Of a stretch of DNA of 64,000 nucleotides, positions 7,501-54,749 are shown one piece after another. Origin of the DNA: an uncultured Halobacteriales archaeon (GTDB taxonomy: Archaea > Thermoplasmatota > E2 > JACPAO01 > JAHFTW01); contig CAZVJB010000011.1 in assembly GCA_964627625.1 (NCBI GenBank), positions 12,175 to 76,174 of the forward strand, written 5' to 3'. Numbering within the stretch: the first letter of the stretch is position 1; the number at the start of each line of letters is the position of its first letter. The notes below the pieces were generated by a model. That model was not told where the DNA came from, did not search any database, and saw nothing but the letters and a program-made list of their open reading frames with translations. Both the position numbers and the translations under genes were made by a program.

Positions 7501-8147
7501 CCTGGAATTGGCCTGACCGGCCCGGTGGCTGGAGCCCCGACGGTACGCGGTTCCAGGTAAGCGATGCCACGACCATTCGGGAATTGTTCAAGATTGGGTG
7601 GAGCAAGGATTTCTTGGCGGATTGGGAATGGATACCGCCCGGCTCTGACGGGCTGCTAACCAGCTGGGAGCGACTGCACATCAGCCAACTCGTCCTGAGG
7701 CCGACACGACCCATCGCGGGCGCCGACGGATTGCCGTCTTTCTTCCTGTGGACGCCCTCAAGGCGACCCGCCGAGGGTGGCGACGAGGGCGACCAGGCGA
7801 TTGGATTCGGAACGAGCCCAGGTGTGGCCGTCACGTTGGACGCCGACATCCTGGAACATCGCCGGACGCTCCGAATCGGCGAGAGCAGCGAATTTGACTG
7901 GCAACAGGAAGTCAACCGAGAAATCTGGAAGGCGGTAGCCGAAATACAACTTCAGGACTTCGAGGGCCAAGTCACGGTAAGTCCCACTTTTTCGATGCTG
8001 GAAATCATTGACAGCCCGATTCGTGACAACATAAGGGCCGGCAAGTGGTGGCTCCGAAGCGTGGGTGCGTTGCCCTTCGAATTGGGAAGCGCCGGCCTAG
8101 GCAGCGAAGGCATCCACGGGCTCAACCGCACTCGACTGTTCCCATAG
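4593..8147 (+). CDS. Large hypothetical protein (1184 aa), first gene of a three-gene cluster upstream of the Rhs toxin
   Basis: A long uninterrupted ORF with balanced, globular-looking composition. No signal peptide, TM segment or recognisable catalytic motif. The overlapping antisense ORFs are Arg/Ser/Pro-rich GC artefacts. Confidence 0.6.
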   Translation: MTFYPVQEYEAGRHGEGPAASAAFEMLDQNGGFGEELVKFVAALHGGLSTAVDAIASNLLFVRSEFGPLPYPIHLLHIDVGGGVIENLLDIDDDGQPDLGVTVTPEFSVADPGGGSGLGLRGVHIAIRTMPEGRILSGLRLDLGVRLGQTHALDGPFTDARQIGEYVVVRLEAPSGPFPERLKATLRIHQDGEEGTAGYTSRIIGYVESRMPGIAPPGATLAIGHWTWKGPTRPVEPRVPPRFGLPDSIRRVIRVPNESSEPDAHDELVAEIVRPEAAPNLFGLPAELHPGGAPLDPGIRFDYSETVLQATPTKTTRFSIRVDSIGIGLRLTTIEHPKNKAFGMRSNRLPTRVEIDYDPMRSWELPQFIYTANDTLGDFDMRAEDPDGASALRHMAIRAAEVPVRIGLRLGGNAGADAPLRVFGSDSDNVYKPMPSALGRFVVVGGRDIGTLPPAERRVTKRDFIPGLDVNVPWPAHAITFDLDDTPPSSVLPARMVAGAQDLVYLRVEERPTHAQDAQHVDRWDAELVHADEGAGLVVDLRRAPTLRPGVGTGTERPLRLQVYKVPAPTVAEKEHASRLIVRAGSIPDRLVIDYKHVAAQSPADSDYVGLRVSGGECKHVQALFVDKPAEKTDLLGAGRISVAMPNTPHGFVDVARDHDGALQVTSSETVQAFAGLALSRGLDAEGDFQGLLKRMVMHASLPPTPDDGAAPSLRISASAGTLAVSSAGVGTSGRIALGETLLLSVRATPQAVAKQVLACVPRPAHLEGGEGGFISRLLRLLGRLRVPSLGECRQGFELQPKLGALSARVIGLRELELTSNPENIPGHLPAGGSEEGMRIRATFSEGRVNRAFRFLLGDVWKPRDRPLEEYRAVKFRAAGVPETVAFSFLKGSPLNSSQLRKPSIVHLDLSERSGEAELVLEQPEIAYEFLRRGVQVGRGVTMLSIDSLPRRMVITQLFDERYAPGLTWPWNWPDRPGGWSPDGTRFQVSDATTIRELFKIGWSKDFLADWEWIPPGSDGLLTSWERLHISQLVLRPTRPIAGADGLPSFFLWTPSRRPAEGGDEGDQAIGFGTSPGVAVTLDADILEHRRTLRIGESSEFDWQQEVNREIWKAVAEIQLQDFEGQVTVSPTFSMLEIIDSPIRDNIRAGKWWLRSVGALPFELGSAGLGSEGIHGLNRTRLFP

Positions 8148-8154
8148 GTGATGC

Positions 8155-9544
8155 ATTGCTGAAACTCATTCTACACCACACATACAACAATGGCCGCGCC
8201 ACTGACGTCTCCGGCCACGACAACCACGGCGTGGCCCTGCGCGTCACTTCGGTCGGCTCGTCCCTGCGCCTCCTTGGGGGAGCCAGCGAGATTCGAGTCC
8301 CGCCATCACCTTCTCTTGCCGGCCTCAACGCGGTTCGCGTCCGCCTGCGTTTCCGTTGGGAACCCAGCCAGGGGGCAAACCTCCGGACAGGCATGACCCT
8401 CGTCAAGGGTGACGCCTCGTTCTTCATCTTCGTCACGAAGAACCGCCGACTCCACGCCGGAATCCTCGATGCCAGCGGCGTGATGAACGGGGTCCTGAGC
8501 GAAGCGGTCATCGATGCGCATCGCTGGCATGAATTGGAGTTCCGCCACGACGGCATGGCCAGCGCCCAGATGGTGCTCGACGGCCAGCTGGTTGCCCAAA
8601 GGGACGACATCCAAGGCCCCGTTCGGAGCGTCGGCCCCGGCGGCATTGTAATCGGTCGCTGGGATGTGTTCCAGGGATCCATCGAACCACCAAACCCAGA
8701 AATCTTCGACCCAAACCTCTTCGGCTTCGTTGGCCAAGTCGATGACTTCCGACTAGACAAAGAATACATCGACAGGGACGGCCTCCTTGACCCCTGCTGC
8801 AATGACGGGCCGACATTAGGCCAAGCTATTCGCTCCAACGAAAGGAGTCCGGATGGCGCCAAGCCGCGAGCCGTCCTTGTAACGCTCCGGGCACTGGAGT
8901 CCCAAGTTCGCGCGCAGGCGATTGCAGGTGACCCCACGCGCTCGGCTCGCATTCGCGGCCTCGCGACCCGCGGCGGGAGAGCAATCGCTGAAAAACGACT
9001 GCCGGCAGCGCTAGCCATCGCCAGCGAAGCCCTTCAATTCCTTCGTGAACGGATGACCCAGCAGGAAATCGAAGCGTTCCAGGCTCGGGCAATCGACGCC
9101 ATAGAGGCCACCCCTCAAGCAGCCCCGCTTGCACGATACCGCCGTACCAAGGACGCGAAAGATCTTGAGCCCTTCCGACCGCTGGCCGCAGCTCTTTGCC
9201 GGCCCCTGCCTACGGATGGTCAATCCGGCCCTCCGGTGACCGGAGAGACATTAGGAATGCATGACTTGCGCCTACCGGCCCCGGCTCGGGCCGCGGCGAC
9301 AATTAGGGACTCTTCCTCTCCTACCATGTCTAGCATCGGCAGCAGGCCGTTGGTACCATCTTCTATCCGACAGGACCTGGGCGGGGCTCCCCACCCTTCG
9401 ACGGGTGCGCAATCTACTTCGGACAAACCTGGCTTCCCGCGCAAGCCGAGCGGGAGGAAACGCCGGAAGCATCGCCATCGCCATCGATGCAGATGCTGCT
9501 GTCACTGCAGGCCCTCGCGCGGCCCATCCAACAACCCAAGGTGA
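8155..9544 (+). CDS. LamG/concanavalin-A-like lectin-fold domain protein with a disordered basic C-terminal tail
   Basis: The pattern RVRLRFRWEP...LVKGDASFFIFVTKNRRLHAGILDASG...HELEFRHDG...MVLDGQLVAQRD...IVIGRWDV resembles a laminin-G-like jelly roll. The start is ambiguous: TTG near 8155 or Met at 8387. The ORF overlaps the 3' end of the upstream gene. The Lys/Arg/His/Cys-rich tail may be partly non-coding. Confidence 0.45.
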
Positions 9545-9549
9545 ATCAA

Positions 9550-13755: not shown

Positions 13756-16700
13756 GTGCCGCGGCCTCGAATTGCCCGGGTAGTCGGATTAACCGCGCTG
13801 TGCTTCATCCTGGCTTCCACAGCGGCGGAAGCGACGCCCATCGCTCCGAATCTTGAATCACCCGCCAACAATGCCCACCTCCCCGACCCATGGGATTGCG
13901 ATCCAAAAGGACCATGGAACGAGGCTTGGGACGACGCCTGCGTTTTCTACTCTTGGGATCAAGGCGGCTGGAGCCCATGCAGGCCGGACGGTACATACGA
14001 ACTCCACTATTGGGAAACGAAGGGTTTTGGTTCAGCCTACAAGTGGGATGATTCAGGCACATGCCACCTCGAGGTCACGGACGGTTGGATTGGCTGCGAG
14101 GTCTTCTGGACCGTGAGGTTCCAAGACTCCAGCGGATGGAGCCCAAATAGCCCGGTCTTCCGCTGGACGATTGGAGACGAAGACGATTGCTCCAACACCT
14201 CGCCGCCGCCGCCACCTCCGCCGCCGCCACCGCCACCGCCTCCCGCTCCGGGGGATGCGCCCGATTGCGGCGATGAAATCGACAATGACGGAGATGGCTA
14301 CATTGATTGGGCAGGAATCGACAGTAGCGGTATCGACAGCGACCCGTCCTGCCTCGGCCATTGGTGGGTCGAATCTGAAGATCCATGGAACGCGCCGCCG
14401 CCACCAACATCGCCGCCTTCGGCCTGCAATGATGGAATCGACAATGATAGCGACGGCTACACGGACGACCACGACCCGCGCTGCGACTACAACCACATGT
14501 CGACTGAGAGCCCGGCGGACCCCCCTCCGCCGCCACCGCCATGTGACGACGAAATTGATAACGACGACGACGGAATGACGGATGCCGATGATCCCGCCTG
14601 CGCATTTTACCCATATGATACGGAATCACCCATCAATCCGCTACCCTCGTGCCAAGACGAGGTCGACAACGACAGTGACACCCTGATTGACTCCGAGGAT
14701 CCCGGGTGCGACTATTCACCAGCATATGCGGATGAAAGCCGGCCACCTCCCGGGCCCACCCCCGTAGCCTGGGTGTCCGTCAAGTGCGGGTATGCGCCGG
14801 GCCACATCATCATCACCTACGGGGTCGAAGGTGTGCACGACTCGGCACAACTGGGGAGGCGAGTCACCGGCTCCGGGGTGGCCCCGAGTTCCGTCAACGG
14901 CGCATCGCCGGTACTGGACAGCTACACAGTCATTGGAACTGAGTATGACTATCAATTAACCGTCCGATACAACGGCGACGTTTTTACGAGCAGCGCGATT
15001 GCACGAATCTACGCCGGTAGAATACCGGACGCACCCGCATTGGAAGCCAACGCGGGTCCCACGGCAGGAACGATCGACGTCAATTGGAGCACGGGAGGCG
15101 GTTGGTGCGAACCCCACACCTACAACCTATACGGCTCGATGCACCCGACCTCCGGCTACGCCAAGATAGCCAACCGGCTCACGCCGACGTCATTCACGGA
15201 GCAAGATGTTTCTCCCAACACCTGGCGATTCTACCGCGTAACTGCATCCAACTCTATCGGCGAAAGCCCGTTATCAAACATCGGTTACGCCAGAACACTT
15301 GACTTGCCCAACGCGCCGACCGTCACAGTCACGCCTGGCGACAAGCAGCTCGCAGTGGATTGGTCCGTTCCCACCTCGGATGGAGGTTCCCCAATTACGG
15401 GCTACGAAGTCTTCGGCGCAAAGCCAGGCAACCCAATGGAATTGCTGGCGGAACCGGAAACGCCCGGTATAACGCACGACTCTTTGGAGTATGATGAAAC
15501 TTGGAACTACGAGGTTCGGGCCGTTAACGACGTCGGGCCTGGCCCGCCTGGCGAGGGCACGGGCAAGACCTGGGGCGTCCCCGAAGCCCCAAAGCACTTC
15601 GTTGGAAACCCAGGCCCGGCAGCCAGCGAAATCGAAGCCACCTGGTCGCCACCGGCCAGCGACGGCGGCTACGCCATCACGAAGTATAGCTTCTATCGCG
15701 GAACCTCCGCCGGCTCCACCACATTCGTGGCAGACATTACAGACCTGACCGATTTGTCGTACGATGATACAGGGCTCGCCGGAGGTACCACCTACTACTA
15801 CGAGGTTACCGCCACAAATGAAGCGAGCGAAGGGCCCCCAGCTAAGGCGATGGCCACGCCTCCGCAACGGCCATTACCACCGCGTGACTTGACGGCAGGC
15901 GTCCCCGGCGCGGGTGTAAAGCTTGACTGGCTTCCACCCATGTGGAACGGTGGATCTCCGTTGACCACCTACACGGCCTATGCATCCCCAGATGGCTTGA
16001 CGTATACTGCGGTCGGAACCGTGGCCCCAGGAACCCTCACCTACACGGCGGTTCCGTGCGCCGCGTCCTGTACCTACTACATGACGGCGTCAAATGTCTT
16101 CGGCGAAAGCGACCGATCCAACATAGTGCCGCAAAACATTCCGCTACAGAAGGAATCAATTCGAGGCACGACCCCCGGCTCTGGCGCGGGCCTCAAACAG
16201 GGCTTCCCGTGCGTTAATCCGGCCAAGGAAACCGTCAACCTCGTCAGCGGCCAATTCGTGGCATCCATGTGCCTCATGCACGCCCGATCCGAGTACAAAG
16301 GCCTCAACGTGTCCATCGTTGCGACCCACCGAGCCGAATCCACAGGCAAGGACTTCATTGGCAACAACTGGTACTTGTCCGTCAATCGCCGCCTCGAAAT
16401 TGTCGACACGGGCATTATCCTGACATCGGGAACAGGGCGTACTGATGGTTTCCTTGCCGCCGGCCCCGGTACCTACACGCCGCCACCCGGATTCTACGAC
16501 CGACTAGCAGCGATTCCAAGCGGCTTCCTCCTTGAGCACGTGGGCGGTGTGAAGGAGTACTTCGACGGAACGGGCCTTCGCACCCGGGTCGAGGACGTAT
16601 CGGGTAATACAGTTGAATTCCGGCATGATACCTCTGGCAAGCTATACGAAATCACGGATGCGCACGGTCGAATTACCCGCCTTGACTATGATCAAGAAAA

Positions 16701-19700
16701 ACTCGTGAAAATCACGGATTTTTCCGACCGCATCACGACGCTCGCATACGATGCCGCGGGCAACCTTGAGACCATCACGCTCCCATCGGATGACGAACCG
16801 TCCGAGGCAACGTACGGATTCACGTACACGAATCGCAACGCCATCGCGACGGCTCAGGACCCGAATGAAAATGTCTACATGGAAAACGATTACGATGCAA
16901 GCGGGCGCGTCGCCGAACAAACAAACGTGGACGGAACTTTCACTTTCGCATACGAGCCAAGTGCCCACAAGACGACCGTTACGGACAAGAACGGAAACAT
17001 CGTCGAGTGGGGGTACAAGGCAGCCCAACCGCTCCCACTCTACCAGACGGTTTACATGAACCGCGAGGTGTCGCCTGACCAACCAACTACACAGATGACG
17101 CGTTTCACGACGAATGAAAACCTGGAGATTACCCAGGTTTCCGCACCGGATGGCATCGTGACGAAGTTTGCGTTTGACGTAGGCAACCCCAATCCCATAG
17201 CGCAGGGGAACGTCGTGCGGGAAGAACTTCTTCCGCCCGCCGGGTCGACGCTGCCGCCCTTGGTCACGACGTTTACCTACGAATCGCTCTATCAAAACGT
17301 CAAGACGATTACGCCTCCCGAAGGGAACGATCCCAACTACGCTCCTCAGAATGGTGGATCCTGGTCGGCGTCCCGTTATACGACGACGTTCTATTACGGA
17401 CAAGACGAAACCACACTGAGTCAAGACCTGAACCTTGATGGCATCACGACCGGATCAGAAGGCCTCTTGGTCAGGGTTACGCGCCCGGAATTGAACGCGG
17501 CCGGTCCGCCCGCGGCCGGAATGGCGGGCGGAAATCAGGAGCAAGTCGAATGCTGGATCTACAACGACCAAGGCCAAGTCATCCAGCACATTGCCACCGA
17601 TGGCCGACTGACGAATCACGTCTACGAAGACGGTTTCCTCCTCGAAACGACGGAAGGCGGGGCGATGGCCCTACCTACTTGTGAAGCGGCGCCCCCGCCG
17701 ATGATGGCAGCCATGGCTGCACCGACGAACTTCCCGTCCGATGTGCCCGAGACCCCCACTGAAGGCTTGCGAACGAGCCACTTTTCCCACGACGCTGTGG
17801 GAAACTTGATTTCGTTCACGGATCCATCAGGCAGGACAACCAAGTACGAAGTCGATGCTCTAGACCGGGTGACCCGCATCCTCATGCCAGGCCCATTGAA
17901 GGCCGACGTCAAAATCACATATGACGCGAATGGCAATGTCATCTCGACACAGACAAGAAACGTGGCTCAGGCCGTCGATGGATCCATCTCATTGGACCCC
18001 GACAACGAGTACTTGGTCGACTCTTTTGCGTACAATGCCTTGGATCAAAAAGTGGAGGAGTGGCTAACGGCTGCTCGACCGACCGGCTCCGTGGACAGCA
18101 ATACTCCAACCTCAGTCCACCAGAAGTATGGCTACGACAAGAACGGAAACCTGATCATTCTTAGGAAAACGAATTCCGTGGCCGGCACGGATGGAAACGA
18201 CGCAGAGACGTACATCTATAACGAGCGCAATGAATTAATCGCCAATACACGGGGCGGGCTGAATCCCCTTTTCACCCACATTGAAGCGAATGCCGGCGTG
18301 GATGTGGACGACCTGACGGATCCCTTCGCGCTCTACCTGCATACGCGGGACAATGTCCAAACGGCCGTCACATGCGTTGTTTCCAAGACACAACCCATTG
18401 ATGTTACGCAAGTAACGAAAGCGTCGCAGTGCGCACCCAATTCGCTTTGCACCACAACCCCGAAGGAAATCCTAGGTGGGATGAATGTCACGCTTGGGCC
18501 GCCGCCAATCGTCGGGACCGGCACTCCAGAGTGCATCAAGGCCGCCCTGCGAAACCCGATGAATCAGACGTGGCCTCAGGACCCACGACTCCAGACCGCA
18601 CCGCCACTACTGCCCAATGCTGGGTCGGGGATTGGTCTCGTCCCCGGATACATGCCGCTGAGCGACGCCACGATGACCTGGGAGTACAATGGGGCCTACT
18701 CGTTTTCGGATGTTAGGCTATCCGCCGTGTTCTGGGCCCTGCCCTACGAGGCGTCCACTTCCTCGACTATTGCCTGGAAAGTCCGCGTGTACAGCGGCAA
18801 CATCCTCGTGGCCAGTAACGACCAGGTCACGGGAACGGCATTTCCGGCACCAACCGGCAACCAGGCGCGCGAATACCGCATAAGCATGAATGCAGCGAGT
18901 TTCGCCGGCAGCAATCTTCGATTAGAAATCGAGGCCATGTCAGGCCAGGCCAGGCTCGTCCTGTTCGATTCGCCCGGCGCGCCGTCGCGCCTCGAAATTG
19001 GAAATGCCGTGACGACTTCGACGACGTATGATGTGGGAGGTCGTGTCACAAGCACTACGGACGGCGGCGGCGCTCAAACGAGTTACAGCTACGACCCCTA
19101 CGGCCGTCAATTATCCACCGTCAATCCCACCGGCACGCGTACGACGTCTACCTACGACATGAGTGGACGGATTATCACGGCGGAAGCCTACGGGGCCTTG
19201 GGTGGCATTGGATGGCACACTGAGACAATGGCCACGGTCCTGCTACAACGTATGCACATGCGTTACGATGAAGCAGGCCGGCTATTCCAGAGTGACGTCG
19301 CACGCTTCGACCCAGCCACCGGAGCCTCGCTTCCAGATGTGGGCCTGACGCCTGGTGACGGATTCGCCACAACGCAGTACGAATATGACTATGGGGGACG
19401 GATTACCAAGAAGACCGATGACAACGCGGCCAGCCACACGTATTTCTACGATGGTTTCGGGCATTTGGTTTCCGAGACCGACGCGGGCGGAAATACGGCG
19501 CAATACGTGTACAACGCCAATGGACAACCCATCAAGGCCACGACAACAGAGACCTATCCTGGGGCCTCCGGTACCGAGACTTCGTCCACGACAGCGCTGT
19601 TCTCCTACGACGATGCCGGACACCTCGTCCGTGCTGTCGACAACGCCGGCAATGCCCGGCGAAACGGCTACGATTCGCGCGGCAACCTGGCATGGGAGTC

Positions 19701-22293
19701 AGATGCGCGCGGCTTTATCATGCCTGACCCCGCCGATATGTATGACGGATTCATCAACGTCGATGGAAACCTCGTCACACATACCTACGACGGGCAGAAC
19801 CGCCTGATCGAAACGAAGCGCGAACTGCGCAAGGACGGAACGAGCACAAGCACTCTTACGGCCTACATTTTCACGAGGCAAGAATGGGACGCAAACGGCA
19901 ACCTGGCCTCCATGACGGACGATGCAGGCCACAAGACCGTCTATGACTACGACCGCCAGGGCCGCCTCGTCGCGGAAACGTTTGCAGATGGCACGCAGAC
20001 TGAACACGAATACGATGCTGCGGGTAACCTGGTCAAGCGCGAAGACGCGCTCGGCAACGTAATCAAAGTAGAGTACAGCCCAGGAAGAAGCGCCGTTCGC
20101 GTAAATGTAGCAGGGCCTGCCACTCGTTCGACCCTGCAATCCTTCGAATACGACGGCCTTGGCAGGATGACGCGCGCCTCGGACAACAACGACCCTTCGA
20201 CGACCGTGGACGACGCCATCGATTCCTTCACGTATGATTCGATGTCCGAAACGGTCCTACAGGTCCAGAACGGCAAGACCGTTTCGCGTGCCCACGATGG
20301 ATTAGGCTCCGTCACGAGCCTCGTGTACCCAAACGGCCGCACCGTGACGAAGGAATATGATGCGCTTGCACGCTTAACCGAGGTCCTGGATGATACTGGC
20401 CCGCTGGAGACATACACCTATGGGACCGGCCGGCTGGTATCCAAACTAGCGGGCAATGGCGCTCTGACCGAATTCACTTATGACAGTAACCGCCGGGTCG
20501 CATCAATTGCGACGCCCGACGTCTGGGACTATGACGTCGAGTTCCAATACGAATATGACCGCAATGGTCAGGCCACGAGTGTAGACATGCCGCATGCGCC
20601 GCTTTGGGGCAGCACCTTTTCCTATGATTCCGCCGGCCGGCTCACGAGCGCCGAAAAGGTTGTCCACACGACACCGGCGTGGTGGTACCAGTTACCGCGC
20701 GACACGATGGCGTCGCGAACCGACTGGACTCTGGATACGACGAACAATTGGGTCGGCGTCTCCGTCCAACGTGATGGGGAGGCTACAGTCAATCAAGCGC
20801 GGACGCATGGCCCCCTGGACCAACTCACGTCGACGACGGTGAGTGAAGTCAAAACGCAAGTGACGCATGACGTCGTCGGCAATCGGCTGGCGGACGCCAA
20901 GTACACGTATACGTGGGATGCTTTCAATCGCCTACGAACCGTTTCGCAGGCGACGACGGGCTTCCAGATTGCGATGTATACGTATGATGCACTTGATCGC
21001 CGCGTCTCTAAGGCAGTTTCTGGCATCACGACGACCTACATCTATGATGGCGCTAACGTTATCGAAGAACGCACCTGGGCCGACGTCGTTCTGCGGCAGT
21101 ACGTGCACGGCAGCGGCGTCGACGAGCACCTGGTCATGGATCGAGACCTCAACGGCGACGGAACAGCAACTGGTGCTGGCGACCAGCGGCTCTATTTCGT
21201 GCAAGACCGGCTTGGCAACGTCGTTGGCCTCATGGATTCCGCGGGCTGGTTCAAGGAAGGGTATCTGTACGAGCCGTATGGCCAAATGGTCATCGTCCAA
21301 CCCGGCCTCGACACCGTGCTTAATTGGGGCGAAGACGATGTCATCGCAGCAACCTCGGCTTACGACAACCCCTACTCGTATACGGGTCAACGCGTTGACC
21401 AAGAGACGGGCCTGTACTACTACAGAGCCAGGTACTACGACGCCGATAGTGGACGATTTCTTAGCCGGGACCCTATCGGCATCTGGAAGGACTCAGGCAA
21501 CTTCGGGAACGGATACGCATATGCGGGTTCGAACCCCGTCATGTTCAGTGACCCATCGGGATTGTGCTTCATCATCTGTGATGGATGCGGGGTCATGGAC
21601 CTTGTTTGCGGCCTTCATGAGACCTTCAATCCGAATGGCGAATGCATGCTTACGGACAATCTCTGGTGCCATCCGGAATGTGGTAACTTCGACTTGACGT
21701 GCGAGATTCCAGCGTCAATCAACGATTGTATGCAACCCAAGAACGGATGGGAGGCGACGGGGTGCATCGTGACGGGGGTTGCTGTGGCCACTATTGCGTG
21801 TCATTTCTCGACGACATGCCTCCAGCTTGCCAGAGCGACGTGGACAAGATGGGGGGCTCCCCTGATTACCGGAATCGTGAATTTCTTCAAGGGGCCGGGC
21901 GACGACGCGGTCACTGCAACCGTGGCCTCAACGTCTCGGTACTCAGGCCTACGCGAAATAGGGGCCAATTTGTGGGAGTCCGTCAAGGGGCTTCGGTACG
22001 GGCCCGATCGAATTTGGGGAAATCGTGCGGAGCACGTGATAGGGGGCCATACTCCGGGCGGGGCAGGGACCGCCGGAAAAACGGTTTTTAATGTAGGTAA
22101 AGATCACGTTTTCTCGCTGATTGATGATGCGTGGGCCATGAAGGGGGCTGGGACGGTACAAAGCAATGGCAACACCTTGTATCGCGTAGATATGGGCAGA
22201 ACTATTGGGACGGGCGGTGAAAGGTTTATCGACATCATCGTCAGGACAGGTAGTTCGGACCTTATCACGGCATTTCCCCGGGGGGGAATTTGA
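13756..22293 (+). CDS. Giant Rhs/YD-repeat polymorphic toxin (~2845 aa): signal peptide, poly-Pro, Cys-rich DxDxDG repeats, FN3 domains, YD-repeat shell, Rhs core (DPxGL), C-terminal toxin domain
   Basis: There are dozens of YD-repeat units (YDPYGRQLS, TYDMSGRI, YEYDYGGRI, YFYDGFGHL, FTYDSNRRV...). The Rhs core ends RARYYDADSGRFLSRDPIG...YAYAGSNPVMFSDPSGL. Four CxDxIDNDxDGxxDxxDPxC repeats are present, plus FN3-like units (DWSVPTSDGGSPITGYEVFG, ATWSPPASDGGYAITKYSFYRG). The start is moved from the track's 13471 to an in-frame GTG at 13756, giving a Sec-like signal peptide (M)PRPRIARVVGLTALCFILASTAAEA. Confidence 0.85.
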   Translation: MPRPRIARVVGLTALCFILASTAAEATPIAPNLESPANNAHLPDPWDCDPKGPWNEAWDDACVFYSWDQGGWSPCRPDGTYELHYWETKGFGSAYKWDDSGTCHLEVTDGWIGCEVFWTVRFQDSSGWSPNSPVFRWTIGDEDDCSNTSPPPPPPPPPPPPPPAPGDAPDCGDEIDNDGDGYIDWAGIDSSGIDSDPSCLGHWWVESEDPWNAPPPPTSPPSACNDGIDNDSDGYTDDHDPRCDYNHMSTESPADPPPPPPPCDDEIDNDDDGMTDADDPACAFYPYDTESPINPLPSCQDEVDNDSDTLIDSEDPGCDYSPAYADESRPPPGPTPVAWVSVKCGYAPGHIIITYGVEGVHDSAQLGRRVTGSGVAPSSVNGASPVLDSYTVIGTEYDYQLTVRYNGDVFTSSAIARIYAGRIPDAPALEANAGPTAGTIDVNWSTGGGWCEPHTYNLYGSMHPTSGYAKIANRLTPTSFTEQDVSPNTWRFYRVTASNSIGESPLSNIGYARTLDLPNAPTVTVTPGDKQLAVDWSVPTSDGGSPITGYEVFGAKPGNPMELLAEPETPGITHDSLEYDETWNYEVRAVNDVGPGPPGEGTGKTWGVPEAPKHFVGNPGPAASEIEATWSPPASDGGYAITKYSFYRGTSAGSTTFVADITDLTDLSYDDTGLAGGTTYYYEVTATNEASEGPPAKAMATPPQRPLPPRDLTAGVPGAGVKLDWLPPMWNGGSPLTTYTAYASPDGLTYTAVGTVAPGTLTYTAVPCAASCTYYMTASNVFGESDRSNIVPQNIPLQKESIRGTTPGSGAGLKQGFPCVNPAKETVNLVSGQFVASMCLMHARSEYKGLNVSIVATHRAESTGKDFIGNNWYLSVNRRLEIVDTGIILTSGTGRTDGFLAAGPGTYTPPPGFYDRLAAIPSGFLLEHVGGVKEYFDGTGLRTRVEDVSGNTVEFRHDTSGKLYEITDAHGRITRLDYDQEKLVKITDFSDRITTLAYDAAGNLETITLPSDDEPSEATYGFTYTNRNAIATAQDPNENVYMENDYDASGRVAEQTNVDGTFTFAYEPSAHKTTVTDKNGNIVEWGYKAAQPLPLYQTVYMNREVSPDQPTTQMTRFTTNENLEITQVSAPDGIVTKFAFDVGNPNPIAQGNVVREELLPPAGSTLPPLVTTFTYESLYQNVKTITPPEGNDPNYAPQNGGSWSASRYTTTFYYGQDETTLSQDLNLDGITTGSEGLLVRVTRPELNAAGPPAAGMAGGNQEQVECWIYNDQGQVIQHIATDGRLTNHVYEDGFLLETTEGGAMALPTCEAAPPPMMAAMAAPTNFPSDVPETPTEGLRTSHFSHDAVGNLISFTDPSGRTTKYEVDALDRVTRILMPGPLKADVKITYDANGNVISTQTRNVAQAVDGSISLDPDNEYLVDSFAYNALDQKVEEWLTAARPTGSVDSNTPTSVHQKYGYDKNGNLIILRKTNSVAGTDGNDAETYIYNERNELIANTRGGLNPLFTHIEANAGVDVDDLTDPFALYLHTRDNVQTAVTCVVSKTQPIDVTQVTKASQCAPNSLCTTTPKEILGGMNVTLGPPPIVGTGTPECIKAALRNPMNQTWPQDPRLQTAPPLLPNAGSGIGLVPGYMPLSDATMTWEYNGAYSFSDVRLSAVFWALPYEASTSSTIAWKVRVYSGNILVASNDQVTGTAFPAPTGNQAREYRISMNAASFAGSNLRLEIEAMSGQARLVLFDSPGAPSRLEIGNAVTTSTTYDVGGRVTSTTDGGGAQTSYSYDPYGRQLSTVNPTGTRTTSTYDMSGRIITAEAYGALGGIGWHTETMATVLLQRMHMRYDEAGRLFQSDVARFDPATGASLPDVGLTPGDGFATTQYEYDYGGRITKKTDDNAASHTYFYDGFGHLVSETDAGGNTAQYVYNANGQPIKATTTETYPGASGTETSSTTALFSYDDAGHLVRAVDNAGNARRNGYDSRGNLAWESDARGFIMPDPADMYDGFINVDGNLVTHTYDGQNRLIETKRELRKDGTSTSTLTAYIFTRQEWDANGNLASMTDDAGHKTVYDYDRQGRLVAETFADGTQTEHEYDAAGNLVKREDALGNVIKVEYSPGRSAVRVNVAGPATRSTLQSFEYDGLGRMTRASDNNDPSTTVDDAIDSFTYDSMSETVLQVQNGKTVSRAHDGLGSVTSLVYPNGRTVTKEYDALARLTEVLDDTGPLETYTYGTGRLVSKLAGNGALTEFTYDSNRRVASIATPDVWDYDVEFQYEYDRNGQATSVDMPHAPLWGSTFSYDSAGRLTSAEKVVHTTPAWWYQLPRDTMASRTDWTLDTTNNWVGVSVQRDGEATVNQARTHGPLDQLTSTTVSEVKTQVTHDVVGNRLADAKYTYTWDAFNRLRTVSQATTGFQIAMYTYDALDRRVSKAVSGITTTYIYDGANVIEERTWADVVLRQYVHGSGVDEHLVMDRDLNGDGTATGAGDQRLYFVQDRLGNVVGLMDSAGWFKEGYLYEPYGQMVIVQPGLDTVLNWGEDDVIAATSAYDNPYSYTGQRVDQETGLYYYRARYYDADSGRFLSRDPIGIWKDSGNFGNGYAYAGSNPVMFSDPSGLCFIICDGCGVMDLVCGLHETFNPNGECMLTDNLWCHPECGNFDLTCEIPASINDCMQPKNGWEATGCIVTGVAVATIACHFSTTCLQLARATWTRWGAPLITGIVNFFKGPGDDAVTATVASTSRYSGLREIGANLWESVKGLRYGPDRIWGNRAEHVIGGHTPGGAGTAGKTVFNVGKDHVFSLIDDAWAMKGAGTVQSNGNTLYRVDMGRTIGTGGERFIDIIVRTGSSDLITAFPRGGI
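14203..14250 (+). repeat. CCG/CCA codon repeat encoding ~16 consecutive prolines inside the Rhs gene
   Basis: The sequence ccgccgccgccacctccgccgccgccaccgccaccgcctccc translates to SPPPPPPPPPPPPPPPPAPG. Confidence 0.8.
21565..22293 (+). other. C-terminal polymorphic toxin module of the Rhs protein: 12-Cys-rich segment followed by an unassigned ~110-aa His-containing domain
   Basis: It begins right after the DPSGL autoproteolysis-type motif: CFIICDGCGVMDLVCGLHETFNPNGECMLTDNLWCHPECGNFDLTCEIPASINDCMQPKNGWEATGC... then GNRAEHVIGGHTPGG...LYRVDMGRTIGTGGERFIDIIVRTGSSDLITAFP. No known toxin family recognised by eye. Confidence 0.6.
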
Positions 22294-22526
22294 TGGCAGG
22301 TGTCCGGTGCCCATTTTGTGAGCAGGATTGGTTGAACCGCGTCCGGCTACTTCACTTGAACCTCGAAGTTGTAATGTGCCCCGAGTGCGAATCAGTCTGG
22401 CGAATTGGGGAACCCTTGCTCGCCGAAACCGGGTGGAATTACGAACTCTTTATGATGGACCGTGGCCGAAACAATCCGCAACAGCAGGGCGAAGTTCAGG
22501 TGTTGGAACGTTTGGTCGCGTCTTGA
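22293..22526 (+). CDS. Candidate cognate immunity protein (78 aa zinc-ribbon protein) overlapping the Rhs stop codon
   Basis: The start overlaps the Rhs TGA (ttgATGgca). The translation MMAGVRCPFCEQDW...VVMCPECESVW carries two CxxC pairs. Position immediately 3' of an Rhs toxin domain is the usual immunity location. Confidence 0.5.
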   Translation: MAGVRCPFCEQDWLNRVRLLHLNLEVVMCPECESVWRIGEPLLAETGWNYELFMMDRGRNNPQQQGEVQVLERLVAS

Positions 22527-22601
22527 CCGATTCGGCCAAGTGGTACGCGCCCCGCTCGTTTGCTCACTTTTTGGTCAAGGTAGCGTTGCATTTTTGGTCA
22601 T

Positions 22602-23066
22602 TTACAGTGTCTCCATTTTAGCCGGCGCCGGAGGCAGGCCGTACTGGAAGGCGTGGCCGTTGGCGCGACAAACCAAGAGGCCCAAGCGCATGAGTCGCGT
22701 GAGGCGGTTTCGGGTGGTGGATCGTGGCCATCCCCAATGCACTTGCGCGTGTTCAATGATGGATGCTTGGCTGCGCGTCAAGTCATGGTCGAACAAGTCC
22801 AGGAGCCTCACCATGTGTTCATTCAAGGGGCGCTCACCCGGTCGCTCCGGTGGACCAGGGCGAAGGAAGACTTGCCCGCCTTCGGCACGTCGAACGACCG
22901 CCAGAATTTCATGACGGGCTACCGCCATCACGTAGTACCTGGCTACCGGCACGCATAGATCAGTCCCTCTTGCGACGGCCCGTAGTGAGCTGCCGGGTCG
23001 CTTCGACGCAAATACTCGAACGCGCTCTCGCCGCGCCTCGCCCTCGTGGGCCCGCGGCGTACCCAC
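22602..23066 (-). CDS. Two-domain winged-helix (wHTH) transcriptional regulator
   Basis: Two HTH units: FASKRPGSSLRAVARGTDLCVPVARYYVMAVARHEILAV and IEHAQVHWGWPRSTTRNRLTRLMRLGLLV. The second motif is shared with paralogs at 33593-34125 and 47703-48440. Confidence 0.6.
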   Translation of the reverse strand: MGTPRAHEGEARRERVRVFASKRPGSSLRAVARGTDLCVPVARYYVMAVARHEILAVVRRAEGGQVFLRPGPPERPGERPLNEHMVRLLDLFDHDLTRSQASIIEHAQVHWGWPRSTTRNRLTRLMRLGLLVCRANGHAFQYGLPPAPAKMETL

Positions 23067-25398: not shown

Positions 25399-28300
25399 TT
25401 AGCGCCGGGCCATGTCGTGCACCAGTTGTTCGGGCGATGATGCAGAGATTGACGCGGCTGGGCGACGTATCCGGAACATGACGGCAGCGACTCCGGCGAC
25501 AACCAGGACGGCCGCCGCCACCGCAGCCATTATGGCAAAAGTTGGACCGCCTGACGCCTCCACAAGCGTCGTGGGAACCGAATCAGGGCCCGCAATCGGG
25601 GCGCTGGCCTCAGGCGCAGGCTCACTCGGGCCTGCTGCTTCACTCGTGGCGCGAACGGTGATGGTTTGCACCGCGATGCTGGATGAGTGGCCGTCACTTA
25701 CCTCGAGAACGAAGCGTAGCGTTTCGCCTGAGGCGTCCGGCATCGTGAACGTAGCTTTGGCCGTCGTGGCATCGTCAATGATTACGGCTGGTCCTTCCCA
25801 TTGCGTCCACTTGAAGCTGAGCGAATCGCCGTTGCCACCGCCCGATTGCGCGCCGTCGAGGATGACGATTTGGCCGACGTCCGCTTGCCCTTGCGCAGCG
25901 ACCTTGGCCACGGGCGAAGGCGTAATGGATTCTAGGGCCACCATGATGCCGTCCGTGCCCGAGCGTGAACCATCTTCTGCGGTGAGTTCAAAGTAGAGGA
26001 CGACCGCGGACCCGGTCAGTAGGGGTGCAGTAAAGGAGGGCGTCTGCGTGTTGGCGTTGATGAGTTGGACTTTGGGGCCGTAGGTCTGCGTCCAAGTCGT
26101 CGTGGCGGTGGTGGTTCCGGTGATGGTGGCTTGCAGTTTCACGACTGCCCCTTCCGCGACTGTTTGGTCAAGTCCGGCATCGACCTTGAGTGGCGTCGCT
26201 GTCGGTGGATTAGCCGGGTTGGGGTTGTTGCCGGGTGGGGTTCCTGGCCCATTTGGGGGTCCTGGATTGCTGCCTCCGGATGGGGCGATGACATTGATGC
26301 TCCGGCATGCCGTTTTGCCCGTTGTGCCCCAAATATCGGTCACCTGTAGGCAGGTCGAATAGGTGCCAACAATGCCGAAGATATGGATTGGACTCCGCCC
26401 ATAAGATGTGTACCCGTCGCCGAAGTTCCAGCTCCAGGCAGTGACGGAATCGCCGGCATCTGGATCCGATGATGCATCAACGAACGTGGCCGGTTCCCCG
26501 ACCCGGACCGTGGTTGGGCTGGCGGTGAAAGCCGTGCTTGGCGCACGGTTCTCCTGCACGTGGATGGTGACCGTTGCACACGAATCGCTTACGAGGCCTA
26601 ACGCATCCCTCGCCTTGTAGGAGAAGGTCGCGTCTCCGACGAATCCCGGATTGGGCGTGAATACGAAATGGCCAGCGTTAGGGGGTTCGAGATTGACCGG
26701 CCACAATATTCCCGGCATGAAGGGCGCAGGGCATGAATTCAAGTCAATCCCGATGATGTTGGCCTCCGCGTCTACATCATTGGCGAGGATGGATGGCCGG
26801 CTCTGCGTCATGGTGTCGAGGTAGCCATTCTTGATGGCCACGTAGTAGTCCTCCGTGGCCGTCGGTGGCGTGTTGGTGACGGTGACGTTGCACGTTGCAA
26901 ACGGGCTGGTGGCGCCATCGTCGTCCGTCACGCTAAGTGTTACCGCAAACGTGCCGGCAATTGCCCATGACGCCATCGTGGACGCATCGCTGGCCGATGT
27001 GGGGGTTCCGCTTGGGAAGGTCCACGACCAGCTGGCAATTGTACCGTCTGAATCGGATGAGCCGGCAGAGCTGAAGGCAATCGATTGCCCCGGCGCAAAA
27101 GGTGGCGCGGTTGTGACGCCGCACGCCGCGGTTGGGGCTTGGTTGACCGTGCAGCCGATGTCCAATTGGACTGTCACCGTGTTCAGGAGGGTGTTGGTGG
27201 TTGCGTCCTTGAGTTGGTACTGGAAACTGTCCCCCGTTGCCCCGCAGTAGTCGGTGTCTGCTTGGTAGACGAATCCGCCTTTGTTGTCAGAGTTCCACGA
27301 GAAGGACCCGCCGCTGGCCACGTGGGAGGGGCCACTTACGAGCAAGGCTAGGATGGCGTGGTTGGCTGTGTCCTGGTCGTTGCAGAGCACGCCCTTGTAG
27401 GGGCCACCTGTGGCCGACGGAACGTTGGCAGCGCAGGGAGCCGCCGTAAACAACGAGTTAATCGTAGCCGAGAACGTGTCCGCCACCGCAGCGGGCGGGC
27501 AAGCGATGTTCAATTGCACTGTGGCGGTGTTCAGCATCGTGTTCGTGCTGACATCCTTCAATTGGTACTGGAAGCTGTCGCCGGCAAATCCGCAGTAGTC
27601 GGTTGCGGCCCGATACGTGAAGCCGCCCTTGTTGTCGGCATCCCACGTGAAGGACCCGCCCGGCGTCGTCTGGGTTGGGCTTGTTACCAGGATTGCCTGG
27701 ATTGCGTCGCCGGCGGCGTCCTGATCATTGCACAAGACCCCCTTATACGGGCCCCCTGGTGCGGCAGGGATTCCCACCGCGCAGGCTGCGGCCGAGAACA
27801 ACGCATTCGCATCGACGGCAAACGTATCCGCGACGGCAGCTGGGGCTGCCGGTGGCTCGGATGGCGTGCCACAGGATTCTGGCGTCCCAGGACTCAGGTT
27901 TGGGCCCCCCGTATATCCATCGTACGCCCTGAGGTAGTAGCAATACGTGGCACCCGTTGTCAGGCCGGTATTCGTGTATTCACACGGCGTCGAGGCGCAT
28001 GCACCGCCCGCGGGGATGTTCATGATGAACGTCTCGGCTCCGCTGGCGCCGCGGTACATAGCGTAGCCCTGCACGCCGCTGGCGCCGGAGCCGGCTGGCG
28101 TGCAACCGACGGCAGGACAGTCGCCCGACGAGGCGGTCCACGTGAGTTTCAGTGACGTCGCAGTCGGGGTCCCAACGGCCAACGTCGATGGCGCAGTAGG
28201 CTTGAAGTCGGGCGTAACTGACACCGATGCACTCGACAAGCTTTCCCCCGCCACGTTGGCGCCGGGTTGGATTGGGAATTGGGGGCAATTCACGCCGGAA

Positions 28301-29280
28301 ACTTGGTAAGCGTACGTCTGTCCGCTAGTCAACCACATGTCGTCGTAACTTGTCGCGCCCGCCGCCATCGTGTTCAGCAGGCTAAAGGGTGCGCCGCCGA
28401 CGCTGCGATAGATGCGCCACTCCGTAACCGGTTGGGCTCCGTTGTCCACGGGGGTCCAACTGAGGCGGACGGTGTTGTCGCCAATGGCCTGGGCGGAAAG
28501 GCCAACTGGCGGACTTTGCCACATGCGAAGGGGATTGCCAGCGCCGTTTCCGCTGTCGCCGACGGTCCATTTTCCCGTCCCCGGTTGGGTGTTGCTCGTG
28601 CCAGCGGCCAGGTAGTCGCGAGGCGTTCCGGGCCCCACCGGGGTTGGTTCTCGCTGGGCGTTGGCCATCATGCCAAGCCATTGGTCACCGTCCTTCGGCT
28701 GAAGTGCCGGATTCCCCCAGAGCGTGCGCTTGACCGTGTACTTGAGCTCGTTACAGACCCAGGTCGGAGCGGTCAGGAAATTGGTGCCTTGACCCGATTC
28801 GGGCGGGCTCCCCGCATTGCTGTACGGATAAAGTTTGGAGTTGATGAAGCCCGTCGCGAATTTAGCCGTGGCCGCCGCGTGATATTGCTGCCCATTGGCC
28901 ACCGTGAAGTCAACGGGGTAGCGCACGGCCTCGCCAACGTTGGCGGCCGCTGTCGGATCAAAGAGCGGGCTGGGCGACCCTACTTTAATCCAGAAGTAGA
29001 TGTTGTCTGTGTCCGATGACATGCCGAGCCGAATCAATTCGGCCCTCGCGGCATCCGGACTGCCGGGGCTTCGGTCGTCCACCGGTTCGGAGGCACCTGG
29101 GGTGCCGTCCGGGTTCAGGGCCATGACCTCGAACCCTGTGCCATTGCCCGCCGCCGCAAGTTGCGCGCACACCGCCATGGCTCCCAGAAGAAGCAGCGGT
29201 AGAAGTGCGGCCTTGAGAATGACGTCAACACGGAGCTTTCCGGTTATGCAAGCGGGTTCGACAGGACTCAACGTGGCCAC
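25399..29280 (-). CDS. Large cell-surface protein (1293 aa) with signal peptide, FN3-like and PKD domains and a C-terminal TM anchor with basic tail
   Basis: The N-terminus LLPLLLLGAMAVCAQLAAAG is signal-like. A PKD signature is present (SVTAWSWNFGDGYTS), plus FN3-like repeats (TAPSTLAVGTPTATSLKLTW). The C-terminus is AIMAAVAAAVLVVAGVAAVMF followed by RIRRPAAS. Confidence 0.7.
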   Translation of the reverse strand: MATLSPVEPACITGKLRVDVILKAALLPLLLLGAMAVCAQLAAAGNGTGFEVMALNPDGTPGASEPVDDRSPGSPDAARAELIRLGMSSDTDNIYFWIKVGSPSPLFDPTAAANVGEAVRYPVDFTVANGQQYHAAATAKFATGFINSKLYPYSNAGSPPESGQGTNFLTAPTWVCNELKYTVKRTLWGNPALQPKDGDQWLGMMANAQREPTPVGPGTPRDYLAAGTSNTQPGTGKWTVGDSGNGAGNPLRMWQSPPVGLSAQAIGDNTVRLSWTPVDNGAQPVTEWRIYRSVGGAPFSLLNTMAAGATSYDDMWLTSGQTYAYQVSGVNCPQFPIQPGANVAGESLSSASVSVTPDFKPTAPSTLAVGTPTATSLKLTWTASSGDCPAVGCTPAGSGASGVQGYAMYRGASGAETFIMNIPAGGACASTPCEYTNTGLTTGATYCYYLRAYDGYTGGPNLSPGTPESCGTPSEPPAAPAAVADTFAVDANALFSAAACAVGIPAAPGGPYKGVLCNDQDAAGDAIQAILVTSPTQTTPGGSFTWDADNKGGFTYRAATDYCGFAGDSFQYQLKDVSTNTMLNTATVQLNIACPPAAVADTFSATINSLFTAAPCAANVPSATGGPYKGVLCNDQDTANHAILALLVSGPSHVASGGSFSWNSDNKGGFVYQADTDYCGATGDSFQYQLKDATTNTLLNTVTVQLDIGCTVNQAPTAACGVTTAPPFAPGQSIAFSSAGSSDSDGTIASWSWTFPSGTPTSASDASTMASWAIAGTFAVTLSVTDDDGATSPFATCNVTVTNTPPTATEDYYVAIKNGYLDTMTQSRPSILANDVDAEANIIGIDLNSCPAPFMPGILWPVNLEPPNAGHFVFTPNPGFVGDATFSYKARDALGLVSDSCATVTIHVQENRAPSTAFTASPTTVRVGEPATFVDASSDPDAGDSVTAWSWNFGDGYTSYGRSPIHIFGIVGTYSTCLQVTDIWGTTGKTACRSINVIAPSGGSNPGPPNGPGTPPGNNPNPANPPTATPLKVDAGLDQTVAEGAVVKLQATITGTTTATTTWTQTYGPKVQLINANTQTPSFTAPLLTGSAVVLYFELTAEDGSRSGTDGIMVALESITPSPVAKVAAQGQADVGQIVILDGAQSGGGNGDSLSFKWTQWEGPAVIIDDATTAKATFTMPDASGETLRFVLEVSDGHSSSIAVQTITVRATSEAAGPSEPAPEASAPIAGPDSVPTTLVEASGGPTFAIMAAVAAAVLVVAGVAAVMFRIRRPAASISASSPEQLVHDMARR

Positions 29281-29432
29281 CGTTCCGGGTCAACCAAATC
29301 GCATGCAGGTCATCTCTGTTTTGGGCTTTCCATGGTGCATGCAAAGCGTTGGAGTAGTGGACCAGGAAACAATGTGACCAAAAGCAACATGTAGGCGCAG
29401 GGCCTTGGTTTCGCCGGCGTGGTTGGATAGTC

Positions 29433-31406: not shown

Positions 31407-31509
31407 GAGGCATGGCCTGCCGTTTCGTAGCTCGCCAATCCAGGGATGCGGCGCCACCGGGCAACAAACAGCCCAAAAGGTCCTTTCATGCGAGCTTTTT
31501 CACATCGTC

Positions 31510-33592: not shown

Positions 33593-34125
33593 GTGGTAAC
33601 ACAAACTACGCCGCAGGCACGTCAGAGACGCGAACGAATTCTGGACTTCGTCGCGAAGCGGCCGGGGTGTTCCCTGCGCGCCATTGCGCGAGCTGGCGAC
33701 TTGGAGGTTAAGGTGGCACGTTACCATGTGCTGTACTTGGCTAAGCGGGAGCTCGTGACGATTAGTCGTGGTCGGCGTGCCTGGTTGGTCTTCCCCGCGG
33801 GCATGCCTCCAGGCGATCCAACCACCGAGGTTGCCTTGCGTGACGCTCAATTGACGCGATTGTGGGCCTGGATGACGGGACAAACGCCGCAAAGCAAGAA
33901 AAACATCTGGACCACGCACAGCAACGGTGGGGAAGGTCACGCTCCACGACGCGCCACCGCCTAACGCGCCTTATCCGGGCCGGCCTCGTCACATGTGCAC
34001 GATACCTGGCGAATCGCATCCGCTGCATGAGCACGAAATCCGCTTTGCCTTGCCCGTTACTCGAGATGCCACCGAATCACGAAGCCGCTGCAACCTTCAG
34101 TCAAGAAGCAGACGACCGAGCTTGA
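33593..34125 (+). pseudogene. Frameshifted paralog of the two-domain wHTH regulator (frame A 33593-33964; frame B 33862-34125)
   Basis: Frame A encodes wHTH-1 (ILDFVAKRPGCSLRAIARAGDLEVKVARYHVLYLAKRELV). The second signature, HAQQRWGRSRSTTRHRLTRLIRAGLV, lies in a +1 frame. The switch is near the run gcaagaaaaacatc (A5) around 33885-33900. Confidence 0.45.
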
Positions 34126-54629: not shown

Positions 54630-54749
54630 GTGCGGTTTGCTTCATATGGAAGCGGGTTTTAGGGCTTGCCGTAACGCCCTCAGGGCCTCCCCCTGTTGGC
54701 CCGGGTGGCAACGGCCTTAAAGCGCCGTTCCCCAACGGAAGTGATTCCT

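Follow-up and report, generated by a model that had tools for sequence, protein, structure and literature searches.

The closest functional analogue of the locus described here is the WapA/WapI pair of Bacillus subtilis, in which a Sec-exported, wall-associated protein with YD/Rhs repeats acts as a contact-dependent tRNase. A second group of relatives includes the Rhs effectors of type VI secretion systems (T6SS) and the TcB/TcC cocoons, where YD repeats build a cage that the aspartyl-protease plug of the Rhs core closes, and where cleavage at a motif of the PxxxxDPxGL type frees an encapsulated variable toxin (PMC8636562, which also summarises WapA). In Archaea, Zhang et al. predicted polymorphic toxin systems, including some that bear RHS repeats, for some 15 of 225 genomes in 2012 (PMC3482391), and Makarova predicted them again in 2019 (cited in PMC8416519 and bioRxiv 10.64898/2026.07.27.741052); none of these systems had been experimentally tested as of 2021 (PMC8416519). 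Here we analyse one such locus in a stretch of 64,000 nucleotides (positions 12,175 to 76,174 of contig CAZVJB010000011.1, assembly GCA_964627625.1), hereafter the window. It includes a long gene encoding an Rhs/YD-repeat protein and a small open reading frame (ORF) for a zinc-ribbon protein that overlaps its stop codon. We consider it very probable that they make up an archaeal polymorphic toxin locus of two, possibly three, genes, with an Rhs cage, an RNase tip of the BECR fold and a zinc-ribbon immunity protein.

Architecture of the Rhs protein

The features of the gene pair are given below as positions within the window, with residues numbered from GTG 13756 of the Rhs gene unless the tail (the part past the Rhs core) is named.

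13756..22293, + strand: Rhs/YD-repeat gene of the predicted polymorphic toxin, 2845 residues, GTG start, TGA stop
13756..13833, + strand: Sec-type signal peptide read from the sequence, residues 1-26, predicted cleavage AEA/TP
14203..14244, + strand: run of 14 prolines read from the sequence, residues 150-163, a linker, followed by A-P
14266..14709, + strand: four acidic double-disulfide repeats, CxDxxD[ND]DxDG..DPxC, residues 171-318 (NCBIfam NF033662, acid_disulf_rpt, E 2.3e-16)
14758..16245, + strand: four to five fn3-like modules, residues ~335-830 (PF00041, E 6e-14, two stretches above threshold; the rest judged from the repeat pattern)
16228..21324, + strand: YD-repeat shell, residues ~825-2523 (PF05593, E 1e-72, 8 stretches; TIGR01643, E 4.8e-59, 9 stretches)
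18253..19065, + strand: insert of ~270 residues devoid of YD motifs inside the shell, residues ~1500-1770, in a gap of 291 residues between YD motifs
21325..21564, + strand: Rhs-associated core, residues 2524-2603, containing RYYDADSGRFLSRDPIG and PVMFSDPSGL (TIGR03696, 78.5 bits against a cut-off of 32.5)
21565..21939, + strand: pre-toxin segment, tail residues 1-125, with 12 Cys among its first 85 residues and a hydrophobic stretch after them
21940..22290, + strand: C-terminal toxin domain, predicted RNase of the BECR fold, motifs GNRxxHV..H, GK[ST]VF, DDAW, GTGGE and ITAFP
22293..22526, + strand: candidate cognate immunity gene, acidic zinc-ribbon protein of 77 residues (CPFC...CPEC), ATG sharing one base with the toxin TGA

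The domain matches of the Rhs protein are far beyond chance, every Rhs hallmark being above its own curated cut-off in the Pfam and NCBIfam scans. An earlier reading of the same DNA (hereafter the original prediction) had proposed an Rhs/YD polymorphic toxin of about 2845 residues with a Sec-type signal peptide, four Cys/Asp repeats, FN3 domains, a YD shell and an Rhs core ending in DPSGL, and this architecture was recovered in full: the ORF is there, the repeats start at residues 171, 224, 263 and 299, and the families of repeats, fn3 modules, shell and core are all matched. Only the polyproline tract had to be corrected, since the run is present but has 14 prolines followed by A-P rather than 16.

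According to the ORF list and its translation, the reading frame is open over 13471..22293 on the + strand, with alternative in-frame starts at GTG 13702 and TTG 13729, and an exact look-up of the product from GTG 13756 found no entry in the protein collection. From this start, the N-terminus reads MPRPRIARVVGLTALCFILASTAAEA, then TPIAPN, and inspection reveals a basic n-region, a hydrophobic core of 13 residues and an AxA site. The segment past the predicted cleavage site, TPIAPNLESPANN, is similar to its counterpart in the homologous protein P0214 (described below), TPVAPVPDSPAEN. The protein would be exported through the Sec pathway, as predicted from this signal peptide. The shell begins with a weak DUF6531-like segment (17 bits) and is partially matched by NF041261 (RHS_core). 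Its insert matches no family, and the BLAST alignment to P0214 continues through it; it is possibly an extra beta-sandwich domain. The Rhs core holds two Asp-containing motifs, DPIG and DPSGL, of which the latter forms its last residues (2599-2603). By analogy with described Rhs proteins, the core is predicted to be an aspartyl autoprotease plug that cleaves after L2603. The locus has the features of Rhs polymorphic toxins, i.e., YD/RHS repeats, a core with a motif of the PxxxxDPxGL type, a variable C-terminus and a downstream immunity gene, the latter being recognised by a conserved gene pairing. PAAR, VgrG, LXG, TPS, EagR and a TcA partner had no match in the family scans run.

The N-terminal modules had been called eukaryote-like adhesion modules of the teneurin type, and here we depart from the original prediction. 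The Cys/Asp repeats match the prokaryotic family NF033662, and the label is unwarranted because the distant Rhs proteins that we retrieved often have fn3, PKD and Ig modules ahead of their YD shells, and the few of these proteins with a source name are all bacterial. A thrombospondin-type identity of the Cys/Asp repeats was rejected, as TSP_3 matches a neighbouring gene (31354-33372) and not the Rhs protein. In the whole-protein Pfam scan (E <= 0.01) there was no match to TSP_3, nor to the features of teneurins (EGF, NHL, FN-plug, Tox-GHH/ABD), and no type II membrane anchor is evident in the Rhs sequence. Nothing specific to teneurins can be recognised from it.

A predicted RNase domain at the tip of the tail

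The tail past DPSGL has 242 residues and matches no family in Pfam (with no hit even at E <= 10), NCBIfam, PHROGs or PADLOC; a word-indexed protein search was also empty. When 1.84 billion representatives were searched exhaustively with HMMER, 535 homologues were returned at E <= 1e-3, 227 of which at E <= 1e-10. Nearly all of them align only to tail residues ~87/90-240, the earliest match starting at tail residue 60, and the pre-toxin segment has almost no homologues among these representatives; that it acts as an entry or translocation module is speculative. The best matches listed all end within about 135 residues of their own C-terminus, most within 10, in proteins of 75 to 4304 residues. 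In a profile search, carriers of the toxin domain were named 'filamentous hemagglutinin', 'pretoxin' and, in one case, 'EndoU domain-containing', and some had PT-HINT (PF07591). The presence of the domain at the C-termini of such varied carriers is what one would expect for the tip of a polymorphic toxin.

Forty members of the toxin domain were aligned (A1), and they share the motifs GNRxxHVLxH, Kxx H[ST]VF, DEAW, GTxGE and ITA[FY]P. Six of the 40 weakly match PF14436 (EndoU_bacteria), the best with E 2e-4, and the tail in the window falls outside that family, so that the domain would be related to EndoU_bacteria at most at the superfamily level. The A1 profile gave only chance hits against the sequences of PDB, with no solved structure for the family. 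Using A1, AlphaFold (AF2) produced a model of the domain with pLDDT 93.6 and pTM 0.87, while the single-sequence prediction of the tail was unusable (pLDDT 31). Foldseek found no significant match to this model in PDB. The model has an alpha-helical segment followed by a meander sheet of 4-5 strands, with structural similarity to known BECR members. As modelled, the C-terminal ~115 residues of the tail adopt a metal-independent BECR fold, an assignment made in this analysis, and the domain would act as an RNase on an RNA target.

The residues conserved across 213 members and kept in the copy of the window include H40 (200 of 202), H44 (203 of 203), D69, T98, E101, T/S117 and P120. The predicted active site consists of His40 and His44 with a Lys and a Thr/Ser in the last strand. 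In the window, the catalytic residues typical of BECR members are recognised in H40, H44 and T117, with the Lys moved from position 51 to 54. The BECR fold has a conserved Ser/Thr in the described position (Zhang et al., PMC3482391), and the proven tRNase YxiD-CTD (Pfam Ntox50) ends in the motif HxVP (PMC12700104). The ITAFP end of the toxin in the window places a Thr where Ntox50 has the His, at the site where the BECR fold has its conserved Ser/Thr.

The zinc-ribbon gene is kept beside homologous toxin tails

Although the small ORF is listed from TTG 22290 (78 residues), it probably starts at ATG 22293, which gives 77 residues, so that the overlap with the TGA claimed in the original prediction is real and the length is not. 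The junction reads ..gga att TGATGg.., with a run of seven G at 7-13 nucleotides upstream of ATG 22293, and the small ORF appears from it to be translationally coupled to the toxin gene. Its product from ATG 22293 is present in the protein collection, with NCBI and Logan sources.

The original prediction had named, as a result that would refute it, a small ORF that is not conserved beside homologous toxin tails, and it withstands this check, made from both sides of the pairing. Among nine loci found by the toxin, seven have a member of the immunity family directly downstream (L001, L002, L086, L087, L088, L089, L091), the one in L086 being an uncalled ORF and L089 having two copies. In L001, a bacterial metagenome contig, an ORF of 77 residues lies 16 nucleotides past the toxin homologue and is 38% identical to that of the window (E 3e-12). 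The eighth locus (L003) has copies 2.4 kb away and the ninth, the Bacillus plasmid L121, has no member of the family. When the family of the small ORF alone was used to scan metagenomes, 30 loci were returned, and 21 of these have a match to the hidden Markov model (HMM) of the toxin domain on the same strand, ending within ~40 nucleotides upstream. The other nine look orphan (L093, L094, L095, L098, L100, L114 with tandem copies, and L118-L120). Because the small ORF is conserved beside homologous toxin tails, we regard it as a strong candidate for the immunity gene, on the basis of sequence comparison. The zinc-ribbon protein would then bind the toxin and neutralise it. Separately, an immunity-like domain is apparently fused to a toxin-like fragment at 5928-6529 of L003.

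The invariant residues of the family are C6, P7, C29, E31, C32 and W36. The small ORF matches none of the curated immunity models (Pfam Imm*, SUKH, SuFu, barstar) and gets only sub-threshold hits to generic zinc ribbons, the best being DUF7836 (E 1.3e-3); the family profile hits only ShdD in PDB (E 0.028). Neither the tables of PMC3482391 nor a search of the literature yielded an immunity family of the zinc-ribbon type. The HMMs find one toxin and one immunity copy in the window, with no second copy of either, which rules out orphan cassettes downstream.

An archaeal scaffold with an exchangeable cassette

The contig is archaeal. The original prediction had conceded that a bacterial contig would overturn it, and the check came out in its favour: the window encodes PAN (53406-54629, - strand, NF003069, 538 bits against a cut-off of 500), a type II methionine aminopeptidase (MetAP2, 56038-56973, TIGR00501, 273 bits against 223) and aMBF1 (54696-55292), the last just under its cut-off (103.5 bits against 110), within a uniform tetranucleotide composition. 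An ORC/Cdc6-like gene is also on the contig, and helix-turn-helix (HTH) domains of the archaeal HVO_0163/HVO_A0261 type occur at 29-31 kb, 7 kb from the Rhs locus. There is no sign of a chimera, because the stretches on either side of the Rhs gene (1-13 kb and 23-36 kb) have tetranucleotide correlations of 0.91-0.95 with the half that bears the markers; the Rhs segment itself correlates less with the rest of the window (0.82-0.86). A haloarchaeal host was rejected, as the proteome lacks an acidic character and PAN has a pI of 6.7. The window proteins that were looked up are all singletons in a collection of 15 billion proteins.

Among 5.8 billion clusters, the whole scaffold has only one close relative, P0214 (2789 residues, locus L085), which is 48% identical over residues 195-2620, through the Rhs core, and has four equivalent acidic disulfide repeats. 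Past the core, the two proteins have unrelated tails, that of P0214 being glycine-rich and membrane-like. A shared scaffold with unrelated tails is the signature of polymorphic toxins. The tail of P0214 is encoded in the region of 18370 in L085, next to an ORF of 70 residues (18607-18819) unrelated to the zinc ribbon, and the two are probably a second, different archaeal toxin/immunity pair; the HMMs of the toxin and of the immunity protein of the window have no match in L085. Apart from P0214, the best homologues of the YD shell have an identity of only 24-30%, in alignments that cover about one third of the protein. Since L085 matches the window in composition (tetranucleotide correlation 0.93-0.96) and has a homologue of the gene upstream of the Rhs gene, the scaffold can be ascribed to this archaeal lineage, with a C-terminal cassette that is exchangeable.

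The toxin/immunity family is spread widely on carriers of the CdiA, PT-HINT and Rhs types, and where the source of such a locus is named, as it is for a few, it is bacterial. At third codon positions, the G+C content (GC3) is 0.675 for the Rhs body, as against 0.57 for the toxin domain and 0.62 for the immunity gene. The drop in GC3 and the bacterial names of these few loci suggest that the cassette was acquired from Bacteria. It was probably grafted onto the archaeal Rhs scaffold by C-terminal cassette exchange.

Proposed mechanism and its alternatives

Under the proposed mechanism, the Rhs protein would leave the cell by Sec, as its signal peptide indicates, and the proline linker, the acidic disulfide repeats and the fn3 modules would hold it at the cell surface, or reach out from it, perhaps with the help of the anchored protein encoded upstream. 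The closed YD shell would enclose the tail of 242 residues, and the Rhs core would cut after L2603 (PVMFSDPSGL), leaving the tail free inside the cage, as in the solved bacterial Rhs/TcC proteins (PMC8636562). On contact, the tail would be delivered into a neighbouring cell, where the BECR RNase would cleave tRNA or rRNA and growth would stop, while in the producer and its kin the co-translated zinc-ribbon protein would bind and block the RNase.

Several points weigh against this reading. The copy in the window departs from the family at two near-invariant sites, with T at K51 (98% K/R) and K at H54 (94% H), and these changes may have altered the active site or weakened it. Since four other members (P0100, P0132, P0141, P0209) carry the same K54 in the absence of K/R at 51, we read them as a natural variant with a shifted lysine and not as decay, which remains a caveat. 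We know of no route by which the cargo of a Sec-exported Rhs cage passes the envelope of its target, and this includes the bacterial analogue WapA. Concerning the host lineage, the best full-length matches of PAN in the GTDB species genomes are only those of Methanoculleus (52%) and of a metagenome-assembled genome (MAG) of Poseidoniales (49%). Finally, secretion, autocleavage, RNase activity, toxicity and neutralisation are all things that we infer.

These points leave room for other explanations. The Rhs protein might mainly be a teneurin-like surface adhesin, or serve in self-recognition, with a C-terminal domain that is non-toxic or dead and a small ORF that is an unrelated zinc-finger regulator. 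The double substitution K51T and H54K would suit such a protein, as would the large adhesion-type modules at its N-terminus, a neighbourhood rich in surface proteins with PKD, fn3, cadherin and TSP3 domains, and the fact that the small ORF yields generic zinc-ribbon hits only. Yet the C-terminal domain is homologous to the tails of CdiA/FHA, PT-HINT and Rhs carriers, it keeps both invariant His and the T/S in a variant that recurs elsewhere, and the family of the small ORF is tied specifically to it in 21 of 30 and 7 of 9 loci; EGF, NHL and Tox-GHH, moreover, go unmatched at E <= 0.01. We find an adhesin unlikely. It is a little harder to credit that the toxin/immunity pair is real but that the toxin is not an RNase, either because the BECR-like fold has another activity or because the Cys-rich pre-toxin is the true effector, e.g., on membranes. 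The conserved His-His-Lys-Thr set fits the metal-independent chemistry of BECR/EndoU (PMC3482391), and it is with the last ~115 residues that the immunity gene co-varies, not with the pre-toxin, which bacterial homologues lack, even though this segment is unusual, with its 12 Cys, its hydrophobic stretch and its near absence of homologues, and even though the tail of P0214 is glycine-rich and membrane-like.

The explanation to which we give the least credence, as highly improbable, is that the Rhs segment is bacterial DNA, in a chimeric MAG contig or after a very recent transfer, and that an archaeal Rhs protein is an assembly artefact. The contig does come from a metagenome, its proteins are singletons with NCBI and Logan sources, the tetranucleotide correlation of the Rhs segment is only 0.82-0.86, and GC3 is lower in the toxin domain and in the immunity gene than in the Rhs body. 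However, this low GC3 is confined to the terminal cassette, as cassette exchange predicts, both flanks of the gene resemble the half with the markers, and archaeal-type HTH genes lie at 29-31 kb. A bacterial segment would also fit poorly with YD-shell homologues that, P0214 aside, are so distant and so partial, and with P0214 itself, found on an independent contig of like composition with the same upstream gene.

We thus retain a polymorphic toxin locus as the preferred reading. One can go further and propose, tentatively and with more doubt than conviction, that the RNase domain and its zinc-ribbon partner are an uncurated and apparently undescribed family (>500 representative clusters), which an archaeal lineage fitted onto its own Sec-exported Rhs scaffold with a unique Cys-rich and hydrophobic pre-toxin, a shell insert and a conserved anchored partner encoded upstream, to make a contact-dependent weapon suited to archaeal envelopes and possibly used across the divide between Archaea and Bacteria.

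Genes around the toxin-immunity pair

Two further features lie on either side of the pair.

12764..13564, + strand: possible accessory gene for a small secreted protein, directly upstream of the Rhs gene
22568..22595, + strand: two T5 runs, 42-69 nucleotides past the stop of the immunity gene, similar to an archaeal oligo-T terminator, a role that they may have here

The product of the upstream gene has a signal peptide, a beta-rich core, a Ser/Thr linker, a C-terminal transmembrane segment and a basic tail, and it had no match in Pfam, PHROG and PADLOC scans. In tblastx, it is 33% identical over 101 residues to 9316-9837 of L085, at the same position in the locus of the close Rhs homologue. 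It could be a surface anchor or a partner of the Rhs protein. On the other side, the next ORF after the immunity gene is on the opposite strand (22602-23066). This ORF and another at 33593-33964 (+ strand) have similar N-termini (..RRERV/ILxFxAKRPGxSLRAxAR..) and are possibly paralogous winged-helix regulators.

Further away, an island of surface proteins (25399-33372) encodes a PKD/fn3/cadherin-like protein of 1293 residues (- strand), a protein of 657 residues with a PKD domain and two archaeal winged-helix domains (HVO_0163/HVO_A0261-like), and a protein of 672 residues with thrombospondin type 3 repeats and PKD. Three consecutive large ORFs (1184, 499 and 581 residues) occupy 4593-11232 on the + strand and have no match in Pfam. 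A UvrD-type helicase (35563-37443) adjoins a DUF6602 protein (37580-38452, - strand), and the two could be a defence-type pair.

Comparison with known systems

Antagonism by Archaea is poorly documented and polymorphic toxins are predicted in a minority of archaeal genomes. The locus is complete and suited to testing, with an intact Rhs cage, a predicted cleavage site, a confident fold model, named candidate catalytic residues and an antidote candidate of 77 residues backed by gene pairing in dozens of loci. It also exposes a widespread toxin-immunity family of predicted RNases and zinc ribbons that lies outside Pfam, NCBIfam, PHROGs and PADLOC and of which we found no description in the literature searched; curating this family would improve the annotation of toxins of the CdiA, Rhs and PT-HINT types.

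The likeness to WapA extends over the whole protein: both have a signal peptide, surface-binding N-terminal modules, a YD shell, an Rhs core, a C-terminal RNase (here predicted) and an immunity gene directly downstream, and the Rhs protein, like WapA, has no matches to domains of T6SS or type VII secretion systems. Unlike WapA, it belongs to an archaeal host that probably has no peptidoglycan wall, it has acidic disulfide repeats and fn3 modules at the N-terminus and an insert of ~270 residues in the shell, and its toxin and immunity proteins are of other families. With the Rhs effectors of T6SS and the TcB/TcC cocoons it appears to share the YD-repeat cage and the Rhs-core plug with its PxxxxDPxGL-type motif, but PAAR, VgrG, EagR and a TcA partner are unmatched in the scans run and export by Sec is predicted instead. 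Teneurins have in common with it the YD shell and the extracellular location, and differ in that here the C-terminal domain stands behind a canonical Rhs cleavage motif, with an immunity partner, and the signal peptide is cleavable.

Among BECR RNase toxins, we compared the domain with YxiD-CTD (Ntox50, PDB 9v8i), MafB2-CT (8hhj), CdiA-CTs (7m5f, 5i4q, 5e3e), colicin D and PF14436. Its sequence identity to these is only 7-18%, the copy in the window matches no Pfam model, and its immunity protein is a zinc ribbon, a type that we did not find among the immunity families of PMC3482391. The original prediction had Rhs toxins as sparsely reported in Archaea, which is fair, though archaeal systems bearing RHS/YD repeats had already been predicted (PMC3482391). 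This locus resembles them in its archaeal host, its bacterial-type modular toxin with RHS repeats, its adjacent immunity gene and a toxin family that probably came from Bacteria, and it stands apart from them by this particular cassette and by a scaffold with one close relative in a collection of 5.8 billion clusters.

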